In this document: positions 25,908 through 30,064 of the stretch, one piece after another | How the letters are laid out: each line of letters starts with the position of its first letter | How positions within the stretch are numbered: position 1 is the stretch's first letter | Source: Acidimicrobiia bacterium | Lineage (GTDB): Bacteria > Actinomycetota > Acidimicrobiia > Spongiisociales > ZC4RG35 | Direction: 5' to 3' | DNA: 64,000 nucleotides | Assembly: GCA_965203555.1 (NCBI GenBank) | Contig: CBDBCY010000004.1 | Coordinates: 2,208,001-2,272,000, forward strand | The notes under the pieces: model-generated | What the model was told of the DNA's origin: nothing | The model's input: only the letters and a program-made list of their open reading frames with translations | Database searches by the model: none | Translations under genes and position numbers: made by a program

Positions 25908-26061
25908 CCTGTCTCTCCGCTATATATGTCGTTAGGTGTGTTTTTGAGGCTAGTTGTCAGGGAGGAGAGAAGAGGCGACATGACGGGGCCTGTTTTGGGT
26001 CCACTGTTGATGTTGCCTTGCCGGCGGATCAACGGCTTTCGTCATCGGGTAGCCTCATAGG

Positions 26062-26991
26062 GTGATGGCGACGATCGCCTACCCACCCATTCCGGTATGG
26101 GAAATCGGGCCCTTGAGGTTTTCCCTGCACGGAGTTTTCGCCGCGGTGGGTTTCTTCGCGGGTTTTTGGTTGGTGGCCCGCATGCTGGAAGCAAGAGGTT
26201 TCGATCCGGCCGGATTCCACTCGTTGGCGGTCTGGATACTGGTGGGAGGGCTGCTGGGGGCCCGCCTTCTCACCGCGCCTGCCGCCCTACTGGACGGAGC
26301 GGGGTTGGAGGCGCTCAACCCGGTGGTGGGCAACTACTCGATCATGGGAGGATTCGTGGGGGGAATAGTGGTGGGAGTTTGGAGAATTCGCCGTCTCAAT
26401 CTTCCTCTCCTGCCGATTCTTGACTTGGCGGCCTTCGGCCTGGCAGCGGGCACCTTCGTGGGTCGGATTGGCGACCTCGCCATAGTTGAGCATCTTGGCC
26501 GGGCAACTGAAGCCGCCTGGGGCTATGAAGTGCGACCCGGCTATGACCTGGCGCCCCAGCACAACGGGTTGGAATGTACGGTGGCAGAGGCAGGCCCGGA
26601 TGGAGTCTGCGGGATCTACCACCATGTCGCCTTGTATGACATGCTGGGCGCCGGGGTGCTCCTGCTGGTGCTGTGGCTGGTATACGGAAAAGCGCCGTTG
26701 CGGTACGGCCAGGTGTTTTCTTTGTGGGTCGTGTGGTACGGCCTCCAGAGGTTTGTGCTGGACTCGCTCAGGTTTGGGATGGGAGACGCCACGCTCGGAG
26801 GATTCACCTGGAATCAGGTAAGCGCACTCGGTGGTGCGGTGGTGGGGTTGGCTCTCTGGATGTGGTTTGGCAAGCGCCGGCCAAGGGTTTCCTCCGAGGT
26901 GGATGAGGGTATGGGGGCCGTGTCCACGGGTACTTCCGAAGAGAACTCACCAGTGGAGGACCATTTGCGCCATCCGCCCGATGCGGAGTAA
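26062..26991 (+). CDS. lgt: Prolipoprotein diacylglyceryl transferase family protein
   Basis: GGLLGARL, SIMGGFVGG, GRIGD, RFVLDSLR, NQ motifs; multi-TM. Confidence 0.85.
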   Translation: MMATIAYPPIPVWEIGPLRFSLHGVFAAVGFFAGFWLVARMLEARGFDPAGFHSLAVWILVGGLLGARLLTAPAALLDGAGLEALNPVVGNYSIMGGFVGGIVVGVWRIRRLNLPLLPILDLAAFGLAAGTFVGRIGDLAIVEHLGRATEAAWGYEVRPGYDLAPQHNGLECTVAEAGPDGVCGIYHHVALYDMLGAGVLLLVLWLVYGKAPLRYGQVFSLWVVWYGLQRFVLDSLRFGMGDATLGGFTWNQVSALGGAVVGLALWMWFGKRRPRVSSEVDEGMGAVSTGTSEENSPVEDHLRHPPDAE

Positions 26992-27003
26992 GATTTTCTT
27001 GGG

Positions 27004-27066
27004 ATGTTGGCAGAAGGGTTTGACCGCTATTTCGTCTTTACCGGGCCCCGGCTCCGGTGGGCATAG
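27004..27066 (+). CDS. Putative aromatic-amino-acid leader peptide MLAEGFDRYFVFTGPRLRWA
   Basis: ATG 27004 to TAG 27066; Phe at codons 6, 10, 12, Tyr at 9, Trp at 19; -10-like TAAGAT at 26989-26994. Confidence 0.7.
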   Translation: MLAEGFDRYFVFTGPRLRWA

Positions 27067-27093
27067 CGCGGACCAATAACCGGCAAGCGCCTG

Positions 27094-27122
27094 ACCCGGA
27101 GCCCGGCTCCGGGTTTTCTTTT
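27094..27122 (+). terminator. Intrinsic terminator of a putative attenuator
   Basis: Inverted repeat ACCCGGAGCC/GGCTCCGGGT followed by TTTCTTTT, about 40 nt before the next start; its 5' arm can alternatively pair with GGCTCCGG at 27050-27057. Confidence 0.8.
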
Positions 27123-27160
27123 GCCCGAGGCCGGTTCCCGACATAAACAAGCTAAGAGGT

Positions 27161-28216
27161 GTGGCAGTGGAGAGACAAGCAACCAGGGAAAGCCGATCAA
27201 AACGCACCGTGGTAAAGGTGGGGGAGACCAGAATCGGACGCGATCCGTTTCCGGTGATAGCCGGACCCTGCGCAGTGGAAAGCGAAGAACAGATCAACAC
27301 GGTGGCGGAAACCGTGGCCGACAATGGGGCTTCGATCTTGCGGGCGGCGACTTACCGGCAGGGTCACTCTCCCTACTTCTTCCGTGGTTTGAGACTTGAG
27401 GGAGCGAAACTCCTGGCCGAGGCGGGAAGGCGGGTGGACTTGCCTGTGGCAATGCCGATTATGGAAGAGCGGGAATTGGAGGAGGCGGGCGATCTGGTGG
27501 ATCTGCTGGAGATTCACCACGGGTCCATGCAGAATTTCGAGTTGCTGAGGGTGGCCGGTCGATCCCAGAAGCCGGTGATGCTTCGTCGCGGCTCCTCTGC
27601 GACACTCGACGAATTCCTGTGGGCGGTCGAGTACCTGATGGCCGAGGGTAACGACCAGGTTATTTTGGTGGAGCGAGGCATCCGCACATTCGGAGCGGGC
27701 CATCGCGACACGCTTGACATCACCGCAGTCCCGCAATTGAAGGAGATCTCCCACCTTCCGGTGCTGGTTGATCCGAGTCACGCTTCCGGGGGCGCTGAGC
27801 GAGTTCCACCATTGGCGCTGGCGGCCCAGGGAGTGGGTTCGGACGGGCTGATCGTCGAAGTCCATCCCGAGCCTGCCAAGGCGAAGACCGAGGGCCCTCG
27901 TCAGTTAGACCTAGTGGAGTTCGCCGAGTTGATGGTGCAGTTGGGAATCAGCCGGCTTCGTTCGAGGATCGATCTGGTGGATCGGGAGATCGTGCGACTG
28001 CTGGCCCGCAGGCAGCGGCTTTCGCTCAAGATCGGCCGCGCCAAGGCCGATCGGGGTTGGCCGGTTCAAAGTTCCCGGCGAGAAACGGTGTTGTTGGACG
28101 CGGTGCGTGAGGAAGCTGTCTTGAACGAACTCGACCCGGACCAGATCGAGGAACTGTTCAATGTGGTGCTGGAAGGATCGCGCCAGGCTCAACAGGATAT
28201 GCGTTCGGATGGGTGA
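27161..28216 (+). CDS. Type I-beta DAHP synthase-fold domain (degenerate active site) fused to C-terminal AroQ chorismate mutase
   Basis: IAGPCAVES, MQNFELL, ERGIRTF, VDPSH, IVEVHP; C-terminal LRSRIDLVDREIVRLLARR...IGRAK...RE...SRQAQ. Confidence 0.88.
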   Translation: MAVERQATRESRSKRTVVKVGETRIGRDPFPVIAGPCAVESEEQINTVAETVADNGASILRAATYRQGHSPYFFRGLRLEGAKLLAEAGRRVDLPVAMPIMEERELEEAGDLVDLLEIHHGSMQNFELLRVAGRSQKPVMLRRGSSATLDEFLWAVEYLMAEGNDQVILVERGIRTFGAGHRDTLDITAVPQLKEISHLPVLVDPSHASGGAERVPPLALAAQGVGSDGLIVEVHPEPAKAKTEGPRQLDLVEFAELMVQLGISRLRSRIDLVDREIVRLLARRQRLSLKIGRAKADRGWPVQSSRRETVLLDAVREEAVLNELDPDQIEELFNVVLEGSRQAQQDMRSDG

Positions 28217-28299
28217 GGCTGACTAACGCTCTTCACAGGATCGCCCGGGTCGGCTAGCATTTTCACCGGGTCGGCTTCGGATGCGGTCGGCCAAGCCAC

Positions 28300-28372
28300 G
28301 GCCCCGTCGTCCAGCGGCCTAGGACGCCGGCCTTTCAAGCCGGTAACGCGGGTTCAAATCCCGTCGGGGCTA
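28300..28372 (+). tRNA. tRNA-Glu (anticodon TTC)
   Basis: Acceptor GGCCCCG/CGGGGCT, anticodon arm CCGGC-CTTTCAA-GCCGG, T-loop GGTTCAAATCC; CCA not fully encoded. Confidence 0.96.
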
Positions 28373-28405
28373 CCGCTGCTGCGAGAGCGTCCAAGCGGGG
28401 ACGGT

Positions 28406-30064
28406 CTATTCCGACGCAGTTGTAACGTAGTGGGTTCCTCGCTTGGTGCCTCGCATTTCCAAAACGCCCGCCCCGAGGAGTTCTTTCAGCAGACCCAGCG
28501 CTTGAAAACGGGAAACCCCTAGTCGTGAACGCAGGGACCGGTTCGTTACGGGACCCTCTCTTGCCATTTTTAGCACCTCGGACCTCATTTCGCTTTTGTT
28601 CAGGGGTACCCGGGAAGGGGGCGTTATCGTGCGAGCGAGACGGTACCGTGCTCCTCCTTTGATGCCGTCTTGTTCCAGGAAGCCCGCATCGCGTAGCCTG
28701 TGAAGGCTCTGGCGGGCATTGTGGCTATCAACATCGAGCAACCGTCTAGTGTAGGCGTTGGTTAACTCGGCACCGCGGGCGGCCTCGACCAGGACGCGCC
28801 GATCTACTGCTCTGAGTTGGCCCCGGGCCTCCTGTTCTCGTACCCATGCCCGTTCTTCTGGAGCTACGGGACTCTCGATGGGCAGGCGGACCGTCACATG
28901 ACCGGTTGTTTCTTCGGCAAAGACAGGCTCGGCTCTGAGGTCTGCAGCCATTTCGTCGAAGATGACCCGTATGCCACGACCAGCATCCTCGGCCATGCGA
29001 AAGTGGCGCAACGTTTGGATAACGACCCTGTTCCTTGCGGAATGCGATGTTCGGAGGTTGTCTATGGTTATTGGGTCTATTAGGCCACCAGGGGAGGTGA
29101 CCTCAACTCCTTGAGGTGTCACGTGGACTTCGACTGCCGACCCTGACAGCTGGTAGTCACGATGGGCGACGGCATTGGCCAAGGCCTCTCTTACTGCCCT
29201 GGTGGGAAGGCGGGGCAATTCGTAGGCATTGAGACCTACCACAACGAAGTCAATACCGATCTGCTCCACTATCCAGGATGTTGCTTCTCGCACCTGGTGG
29301 GCAGGGGTCCCTGATATTACGACTCGCCGGTCGTACTCCTGGGCCCCCTGTTGGTAACGAAAAAGCTCAATGTAACATTTACCGAGGGATTGTGGTGCTT
29401 CTGGGACAAGGTAGAGGGCACCGGCATGGGTCAAGGCGACATCGTGACCCTGCTGCATGGCCAACCGGCGTTGGATCAGGACATCCGAGAGGGCTGCTCC
29501 GTGCTTTGGCCCGATTTCCAGAGCTGTGCATAACTCAATGGCGAGAGTGGGGTCGACATCATCAATAGACCACCGTGATGGTCCGCTGTCAAACCCTAGA
29601 AGTGATCGTTGGTTCATCAAGCGCCGGAGATGTTCTCCCTTGAGTGCCAGGTTCTGCTTTCCCCTGCGGACCAAAGGCCTGCCGTCCGAGGTTTGAGCGA
29701 TGCCCTGCCGCCGGTCTGCAACGGAGATGACCGTAAGGCGGACCTCCCCTACCAAGACCTCATTCAGCTTGACCTGTCCTGGCGACTCGATCTCGTTGAT
29801 GGTCTCCCAGAGGTCCTTCTCTAGCCCCGCATCGAGGGGCTTGTCGATAGGCTGTCCTTGTCTATTGACTCCGATCATGATCACCCCGCCCTCGGCGTTG
29901 GAAAAGGCCACAATGGCCTCTTGGATCGGCTTGCGGCTTGATCCCGACTTCCACTCCACATGCTGGCCCTCGTCAGGGAACTGCTCTGCGAACTCTTCCG
30001 CAGTCATGAAGAGCGTTTGGTCTATGCGCTCAACCCATCGCCAAATATATGCAGGACTTCTCAC
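28406..30064 (-). CDS. AlbA_2 (Schlafen-like) domain + HATPase_c_4/RecG-C-like + winged-helix protein
   Basis: EGQHVEWKS...IVAFSNAEGGVIMIGV; REALANAVAHRDY, SPGGL, RN, EDAGRGI; two C-terminal wHTH-like repeats; start 30064 or 30007. Confidence 0.88.
   Translation of the reverse strand: MRSPAYIWRWVERIDQTLFMTAEEFAEQFPDEGQHVEWKSGSSRKPIQEAIVAFSNAEGGVIMIGVNRQGQPIDKPLDAGLEKDLWETINEIESPGQVKLNEVLVGEVRLTVISVADRRQGIAQTSDGRPLVRRGKQNLALKGEHLRRLMNQRSLLGFDSGPSRWSIDDVDPTLAIELCTALEIGPKHGAALSDVLIQRRLAMQQGHDVALTHAGALYLVPEAPQSLGKCYIELFRYQQGAQEYDRRVVISGTPAHQVREATSWIVEQIGIDFVVVGLNAYELPRLPTRAVREALANAVAHRDYQLSGSAVEVHVTPQGVEVTSPGGLIDPITIDNLRTSHSARNRVVIQTLRHFRMAEDAGRGIRVIFDEMAADLRAEPVFAEETTGHVTVRLPIESPVAPEERAWVREQEARGQLRAVDRRVLVEAARGAELTNAYTRRLLDVDSHNARQSLHRLRDAGFLEQDGIKGGARYRLARTITPPSRVPLNKSEMRSEVLKMAREGPVTNRSLRSRLGVSRFQALGLLKELLGAGVLEMRGTKRGTHYVTTASE

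Follow-up and report, generated by a model that had tools for sequence, protein, structure and literature searches.

A degenerate, probably non-catalytic DAHP synthase barrel is conserved in fusion with chorismate mutase in an order of the Acidimicrobiia

We analyzed a 64,000-nucleotide stretch of DNA from an Acidimicrobiia bacterium (contig CBDBCY010000004.1, positions 2,208,001 to 2,272,000), here called the window; coordinates are given within it unless a contig is named. [quoted passage not shown] The gene and its parts are as follows.

27161..28216, forward strand: fusion gene, degenerate type I-beta DAHP synthase barrel plus AroQ CM; open reading frame (ORF) intact, 351 amino acids as listed
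27224..27943, forward strand: barrel domain, residues 22 to 261 (Pfam DAHP_synth_1, PF00793)
27956..28195, forward strand: AroQ CM domain, residues 266 to 345 (Pfam CM_2, PF01817)
27154..27159, forward strand: Shine-Dalgarno sequence AAGAGG, read from the sequence

The barrel matched DAHP_synth_1 with an E value of 1.7e-54 (185 bits). After a linker in the same chain, the C-terminal AroQ domain matched CM_2 with an E value of 6.3e-18 (65.2 bits against a cut-off of 27). The solved structures closest to the fusion protein were the type I-beta DAHP synthases 5j6f, 1vs1, 3nvt, and 1rzm. An AlphaFold2 model of the protein had a mean predicted local distance difference test score of 89.6, and its top Foldseek match was the Aeropyrum DAHP synthase 1vs1_A, with a root mean square deviation of 1.5 Å over 261 columns. 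Three long helices occupy residues 251 to 350 in this model. The protein exceeded the NCBIfam equivalog cut-offs of TIGR01361 (282.3 versus 267.75) and NF009239 (298.1 versus 279) and scored below that of NF006421 (307.9 versus 335).

We used the best 120 of 7434 protein-search matches as the homologue set. These proteins are 57 to 93% identical to the window protein, all carry both PF00793 and PF01817, and their sources label them Acidimicrobiia or Actinomycetota. Public sources name them 3-deoxy-7-phosphoheptulonate synthase. The listed GTG start at 27161 is one base past the Shine-Dalgarno sequence, while a GTG at 27167 has normal spacing, and the consensus N terminus of the homologues (MERK) matches a start at 27167. 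Spacing and homologue N termini together suggest that the real start is likely the GTG at 27167, two codons downstream of the listed one, which would give a protein of 349 amino acids. RNA-library contigs over 26000 to 28400 matched only 26005 to 26172 and the tRNA region, and were uninformative on expression of the gene.

We read the barrel substitutions from residue-by-residue alignments to 5j6f, 1vs1, and 3nvt. The roles of the residues were taken from the available part of a study of type I-beta enzymes (PMC6362186), whose numbering is one less than that of the fusion protein. That part of the study gives Cys, His, Glu, and Asp as the metal ligands; R60, K65, S/A119, R120, K141, and R171 as binding phosphoenolpyruvate (PEP); and R67, T68, and D243 as binding erythrose 4-phosphate (E4P). 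In the fusion barrel, GGAYKPRTSPY has become AATYRQGHSPY, with KPRT replaced by RQGH at residues 66 to 69. QIGARN has become EIHHGS (E117, then H120, G121, and S122), and LLKRG has become MLRRG (R142). The PEP-binding set is incomplete, with K66 changed to Arg, R121 to Gly, and K142 to Arg, while R61 and R172 are retained. The Arg-Thr pair of KPRT that contacts the E4P phosphate is lost (R68 to Gly and T69 to His). Three metal ligands, Cys37 (GPC), His207 (DPSH), and Glu233 (EVH), are retained, and the four-ligand set is incomplete in that the Asp of the SD motif is replaced by Glu244 (SD to TE). Counted by the roles given in the available part of that study, the total comes to five altered substrate contacts and one altered metal ligand. 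These changes suggest that the barrel has lost DAHP synthase activity.

The CM domain was aligned without gaps to the E. coli CM (1ecm), whose catalytic residues we take to be R11', R28, K39, D48, R51, E52, S84, and Q88. Seven of these eight positions are matched, by R267, R284, K295, R307, E308, S340, and Q344. The eighth, D48, corresponds to Ser304 in the fusion and is variable across the clade. Among the homologues, R267, R284, K295, R307, E308, and S340 were kept in 120/120 and Q344 in 119/120. On these alignments, the catalytic residues of the mutase are intact. An earlier note, made from the letters of the window, had described a barrel that aligns with type I-beta DAHP synthases, with its substrate motifs replaced and its Cys, His, and Glu ligands kept, and an AroQ domain with its catalytic residues in place. 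Pfam and the three structure alignments agree with the first point, every substitution that it listed was seen in the structure-sequence alignments, and the 1ecm alignment and the homologues bear out the last.

The barrel changes are not peculiar to the window. The Arg of KPRT (position 68) was present in 0/120 homologues. The Arg of GARN was Gly in 112/120 and Ala in the other 8/120, the Lys of LLKRG (position 142) was Arg in 120/120, and the Gln that precedes the GARN motif was Glu (Glu117) in 120/120. By contrast, the E4P loop (67 to 69), position 119, and position 244 vary freely, the last being Glu in 47, Ser in 20, Asp in 19, and Asn in 16 homologues and other residues in the rest. A pattern found in 120/120 homologues is more than chance or the decay of one strain would leave, and the degeneration is clade-wide.

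We then compared selection on the two domains by Nei-Gojobori ratios of nonsynonymous to synonymous substitution (dN/dS), taken as medians of 120 pairs from 16 genomes. The median dN/dS was 0.065 for the fusion barrel, 0.163 for the fusion CM domain, and 0.063 for the barrel of the canonical DAHP synthase paralogue described below. The fusion barrel is clearly not drifting.

If the barrel no longer makes DAHP, another enzyme should. A separate intact DAHP synthase was present in 30/30 of the degenerate-fusion genomes examined. The window's own genome, which is 95% complete, encodes a second type I match, a protein of 337 amino acids whose motifs are canonical and whose N terminus carries a ferredoxin-like regulatory domain; its gene is followed by one for prephenate dehydrogenase. 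No type II DAHP synthase was found in this 95% complete genome. In 15/15 close relatives, the canonical paralogue is 85 to 92% identical to that of the window's genome, with KPRT, GxRN, and LKRG present, and 12/12 degenerate-fusion genomes of other genera also carry it with canonical motifs. The remaining two genomes, G038 and G142, are without the ferredoxin-like paralogue and have a type II DAHP synthase instead (691 to 698 bits). The working ferredoxin-like synthase of the order (L001:1258-2271 and L142-L155) itself has the motifs R[IV]GTRN, with Arg where Gln is usual, and DVH, with Asp in place of the metal Glu. Because this working paralogue departs from Gln at the same position, the Gln-to-Glu change alone is less diagnostic than the Arg losses. 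In the window's genome, about 645 kb separates the fusion from the canonical DAHP synthase. In four others (G074, G028, G138, and G018), a degenerate fusion and a canonical DAHP synthase are 20 to 30 kb apart on the same contig.

The inventory of mutases was the reverse. The sole CM_2 match lies in the fusion in 28/28 genomes, comprising the window's own, 15/15 close relatives, and 12/12 of other genera; this census leaves out G038 and G142. No AroH-type CM was found in the window's genome, and a prephenate dehydratase is present there. The fusion thus appears, from gene content, to be the only chorismate mutase of this bacterium. One genome (G161) carries two copies of the fusion. Another (G110) encodes a type II DAHP synthase at C6:888984-890294 and, at C5:221225-221479, a CM 46% identical to the CM domain of the window protein.

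We scanned 151 genomes of the class for barrel-CM fusions. Full-length matches were confined to the window's order, where they occurred in 17/36 other genomes as well as in the window's genome. These fusions form a graded series. In the canonical ones (G130, G126, G078, and P0122), KPRT, QxGxRN, LKRG, DPSH, EVH, and SDG are all intact. An intermediate fusion (G138) has KIRR, QVGASN, and EQGIR, and window-type degenerate fusions carry EIxSGx and RR. A second degenerate type (G066, G106, G098, G114, G028, and G094) has lost the Lys of KPRT and retains LKRA, with DPSH changed to LPSH. In family f3 (G018 and G122), all four metal ligands are gone, and G038 and G142 are more eroded still; the latter two are closest to L018 and L019 (51 to 54% identity), which have lost the Cys, His, and Glu and have His for Lys. 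P0124 has Ser for Cys and Gly for His.

The origin of the degenerate barrel was examined in a barrel-only maximum-likelihood tree of 70 rows, a quick IQ-TREE run with support only from the Shimodaira-Hasegawa-like approximate likelihood ratio test (SH-aLRT). Its rows comprised the window protein and its canonical paralogue, every sixth protein in the series P0001-P0120, 28 ORFs from the loci, and 20 representatives picked from the all-against-all search described below; the fragment L020 was excluded, and G038 and G142 are outside the tree. The 32 degenerate fusions from the order all grouped in one clade (SH-aLRT 92). This clade is nested in a 37-row clade (SH-aLRT 95) whose other members are the canonical fusions L014, L015, L016, and P0122 and the intermediate L017. 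Path lengths from the node of the 37-row clade were 0.23 to 0.34 for canonical fusions and 0.88 to 1.23 for degenerate ones. On this tree, the degenerate barrel descends from canonical DAHP synthase-CM fusions of the same order. Replacement residues differ by lineage, with RR, KR, or HR at 142-143, DPSH, LPSH, DPAP, or NPAP at the His motif, and Thr, Val, Ser, or Gly for Cys, as would be expected where a site is no longer in use.

An all-against-all search of representatives gave mostly canonical DAHP synthases, along with P0122, P0124, P0247, and P0270. Degenerate representatives were few because the whole degenerate clade falls into few 50% clusters. P0247 and P0270 are P-protein-barrel fusions of about 670 to 680 amino acids, with the order CM, prephenate dehydratase (PDT), ACT, barrel, and their barrels are degenerate; that of P0247 has Asp for Cys, NPCD for DPSH, NIH for EVH, and LERG for LKRG. 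They fall in a separate clade, so barrel loss there is independent of the window's lineage. In most other genera of the window's family, a CM_2-PDT-ACT-DAHP_synth_1 protein of about 700 amino acids replaces the barrel-CM fusion (L021-L030, e.g., L022:184-2271), and the barrel motifs of these four-domain proteins are fully canonical. P0121 and P0123 show a partial tandem duplication of the barrel, restarting at GPC after ERGIR or SAEYIM; it arose either by duplication within the gene or as a chimera of the assembly.

The region between the upstream gene lgt and the fusion contains a short ORF and a terminator, which we examined as a possible attenuator.

27004..27066, forward strand: leader mini-ORF of 20 codons plus stop, MLAEGFDRYFVFTGPRLRWA, in which a seven-residue segment contains three Phe and one Tyr
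27040..27104, forward strand: proposed antiterminator, formed between the 3' part of the leader (GGCUCCGG, 27050-27057) and the terminator's 5' arm (ViennaRNA fold)
27093..27124, forward strand: intrinsic terminator from the terminator scan, a 10-pair stem (7 G-C) with a 3-nucleotide loop, then TTTTCTTTT

The terminator and its T-run come after the mini-ORF. An aromatic-rich mini-ORF was found upstream in 27/30 regions: in the window, in 15/15 close relatives, and at 11/14 fusion loci across the order, canonical fusions among them. It was not found upstream of L010-L012, which belong to these 14 loci. As a control, 12/486 tiles of the window scored as high as the leader, and the terminator scan gave 1 terminator where shuffled sequences gave 0.6. 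The terminator is near invariant across 16 aligned close sequences. In a free ViennaRNA fold of the whole leader, its 3' part pairs with the Phe/Tyr codon region and the terminator forms. When the Phe/Tyr codon region was masked, the 3' part instead paired with the 5' arm of the terminator, a putative antiterminator helix over 27040-27104 predicted by folding at −28.6 kcal/mol. Rfam had no family match on 26900-27250; the top score, 17.9 bits for anti-hemB, fell below the cut-off of 49.5.

These folds suggest an attenuation mechanism in which expression of the fusion would be tied to the supply of Phe and Tyr, as would fit a chorismate mutase. The pheA and trp operons of E. coli are controlled by leader-peptide transcription attenuators. 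The fusion leader resembles them in its short ORF, which is enriched in the regulatory codons, and in its intrinsic terminator, and folding predicts a similar 1:2, 2:3, and 3:4 pairing logic. It differs from known attenuators in being specific to this order of Acidimicrobiia and in matching no Rfam family.

The genes on either side of the fusion and its leader are listed below.

26062..26991, forward strand: lgt (prolipoprotein diacylglyceryl transferase; Pfam LGT), directly upstream of the fusion
28300..28374, forward strand: tRNA-Glu(UUC), just past the fusion gene
28406..30064, reverse strand: AlbA_2/HATPase_c_4 gene (Pfam), 552 amino acids, adjoining the tRNA

The lgt gene is directly upstream in 15/15 close relatives and at 7/11 degenerate loci of the order (L006-L008 and L010-L013). 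No lgt gene appeared in the short flanking sequence of L009 and L018-L020, nor in that of the intermediate L017 or the canonical fusions L014-L016. We regard lgt as a neighbor conserved in position. A connection to the trp operon through lgt was considered and rejected, as no trp genes are nearby. The AlbA_2/HATPase_c_4 gene occurs at this spot in only 3/15 close relatives (L040, L042, and L046) and so looks like a variable insertion beside the tRNA.

Taken together, we consider it probable that the barrel is a non-catalytic DAHP synthase domain kept to support or regulate the fused chorismate mutase. The ancestor would have been an active bifunctional DAHP synthase-CM fusion of the kind that persists in sister families of the order, and it would have coexisted with the separate, feedback-regulatable ferredoxin-like DAHP synthase encoded next to tyrA. 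As this second enzyme would have made its catalysis redundant, the fused barrel may have been free to lose the residues that bind PEP and E4P. The barrel would then have stayed under purifying selection, most likely because the mutase depends on it, and would act as a non-catalytic activating or organizing partner of the dimeric mutase. The predicted leader-peptide attenuator, with the ribosome sensing Phe and Tyr, would set the expression of the fusion. The barrel may serve as a sensor, as an activator, or as a plain scaffold. The earlier note had proposed an intact mutase joined to a defunct but selected barrel, and the clade-wide loss, the canonical ancestry, the census of paralogues and mutases, and the dN/dS values all point the same way. 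Two of its suggested checks, on conservation and purifying selection among homologues and on a separate DAHP synthase in the genome, came out in favor of its reading.

Several observations weigh against this proposal. The metal-side residues are near invariant, with C37 in 118/120 homologues and H207 and E233 each in 119/120, and R61, R142, R143, R172, and R175 are each kept in 120/120. Both Lys-to-Arg changes are conservative. The constraint on the barrel equals that of a true enzyme. These points are easier to reconcile with a barrel that still binds ligands, or even has some catalytic activity, than with a bare scaffold. Within the window's subclade, the split between invariant and free positions argues for ligand sensing. 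The dN/dS values themselves are rough because dS, at about 1.1 for the fusion and 0.84 for the paralogue, is close to saturation. Lastly, G110 of family f3 has a free CM frame of 114 amino acids and no type I barrel, so there is at least one background that can do without the barrel.

The alternative that survives best is a refinement of the proposed non-catalytic partner, in which the barrel of the window's subclade binds a metal and a small anion and thereby tunes the mutase. We regard this as possible but tentative. Equally tentative candidates for the ligand are PEP, phosphate, and a carboxylate, for example prephenate; an aromatic amino acid might instead be bound in the enlarged pocket. 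C37, R61, E117, R142, R143, R172, R175, H207, and E233 are at least 98% conserved while the positions noted above vary freely, and dN/dS is as low as in a true enzyme. There is also a precedent in Prevotella, where the available part of PMC8408635 reports that substrates (PEP, Mn, and E4P) activate the CM through the barrel. However, the Arg that the available part of PMC6362186 calls completely conserved in the PEP site (position 121 here) is Gly or Ala in 120/120 homologues, and a Glu has been introduced beside it. Sister lineages also keep the fusion although their metal ligands and further residues of the pocket are gone, which means that sensing cannot be what the barrel does throughout the clade.

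A related idea, for which we would claim no greater likelihood, is that the barrel is a pseudoenzyme acting as a built-in allosteric module for the mutase. It might still sense a metal together with a small anion through Cys, His, and Glu and a half-site of Arg61, Arg142, and Arg172. Alternatively, the Gln-to-Glu117 and Lys-to-Arg142 changes might lock the barrel in a substrate-bound-like, activating conformation; the carboxylate of Glu117 might then replace the anionic groups of PEP among the conserved arginines. If the allosteric module were real, the order would preserve a series from bifunctional enzyme to pseudoenzyme-activated mutase to free mutase with a type II DAHP synthase.

It is unlikely that the barrel has become a new enzyme that runs another metal-dependent reaction on a less negatively charged substrate. 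Within the subclade, the three retained metal ligands, the invariant derived residues E117 and R142, and the enzyme-like selection would suit such an enzyme. Yet the replacement residues are not common to the degenerate clade, the conserved neighbor is lgt with no conserved gene hinting at a new pathway, and the Phe/Tyr-codon leader fits mutase function. A new substrate for the barrel had been raised in the earlier note, and for the clade as a whole, the loss of metal ligands in sister lineages argues against it.

Still less credible is continued DAHP synthase activity of the barrel, with the substrates bound by unusual residues. The intact fold, the TIGR01361 and NF009239 scores, which also count against our proposal, and the name given to the homologues by public sources speak for it. 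Against it, the five substrate contacts assigned from the available part of PMC6362186 are all altered together, one of the metal ligands varies, every genome examined keeps a separate DAHP synthase, and relatives in the same clade are without the metal site altogether. Recent decay, sequencing error, or an assembly artefact can be dismissed, since the frame is intact, the pattern recurs in 120/120 homologues from many independent assemblies, the barrel dN/dS is 0.065, and DNA contigs from two further studies span the fusion gene.

DAHP synthase-CM assemblies serve as a model for allostery arising from domain fusion, and to our knowledge, all those characterized contain an active synthase. A natural lineage whose synthase half is catalytically disabled, but under selection as strict as that on an enzyme and joined to the sole mutase of the cell, would give a clear case of a metabolic pseudoenzyme. 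The fusion would also be a natural separation-of-function variant for the effect of the barrel on the mutase. With canonical, intermediate, degenerate, and barrel-less states in one order, the evolutionary path can be reconstructed and tested. There is a practical side as well. Because the fusions pass equivalog thresholds and carry the name of 3-deoxy-7-phosphoheptulonate synthase, metabolic reconstructions of these sponge-, coral-, and marine-associated bacteria count DAHP synthases wrongly and may overlook the one chorismate mutase that is present. In the literature searched, with subscription journals outside the search, we found no description of a degenerate barrel in a barrel-CM fusion or of these Acidimicrobiia proteins.

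Among known systems, the closest solved structures belong to the N-terminal CM-linked DAHP synthases of Geobacillus, Bacillus, and Listeria (5j6f and 3nvt/3tfc), with barrels about 43 to 45% identical to that of the window protein. The roles are reversed there, as the CM-like domain regulates an active barrel. For the Geobacillus enzyme, the available part of PMC8408635 states that the synthase substrates are without effect on CM activity.

In M. tuberculosis and Corynebacterium, a weak AroQ mutase becomes >100-fold more efficient on contact with DAHP synthase (available part of PMC4281200). The mycobacterial partner is an active type II enzyme bound non-covalently, whereas that of the window is a fused, inactive-looking type I-beta barrel. 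The gene inventory of G110, a type II DAHP synthase and a free small CM, is the same as that of the mycobacterial system.

A degenerate type I-beta domain fused in frame to a CM-bearing protein has a parallel in Shewanella oneidensis. The available part of Song et al. (2005, BMC Biol, PMC1173090) describes an AroQ-PheA protein with a C-terminal aroA(I-beta) "pseudogene," which it calls "bizarre" and leaves unexplained; P0247 and P0270 are similar. It differs from the window's fusion in domain order (CM-PDT-ACT-barrel rather than barrel-CM) and has a separate origin on the tree. In the part available, that paper treats the domain as a dead remnant, without an analysis of selection.

The nearest match in architecture is the C-terminal CM-linked DAHP synthase of Prevotella nigrescens (PniDAH7PS) and of Porphyromonas gingivalis (PgiDAH7PS-CM). 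These proteins share the order of barrel, short linker, and AroQ CM and are of similar length (366 amino acids for the P. gingivalis protein). According to the available parts of PMC8408635 and PMC12202928, barrel and CM are interdependent in both, and the barrel raises CM efficiency. The CM of PniDAH7PS is activated when its barrel binds substrates (PMC8408635), and the separated CM of PgiDAH7PS-CM has a Km of 207 µM versus 19 µM in the fusion (PMC12202928). These fusions are truly bifunctional, whereas the window's barrel is without the PEP and E4P residues and its genome has a separate DAHP synthase. Their feature of two intact sites is absent from the window's fusion and present in the canonical fusions L014-L016 and P0122. 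Bacteroidota-type fusions in our genome scan (L106-L108) were only about 27% identical to the window's. The available part of the P. gingivalis study (PMC12202928) calls the C-terminal fusion specific to periodontal pathogens; in contrast, both canonical and degenerate C-terminal fusions occur in the Acidimicrobiia.

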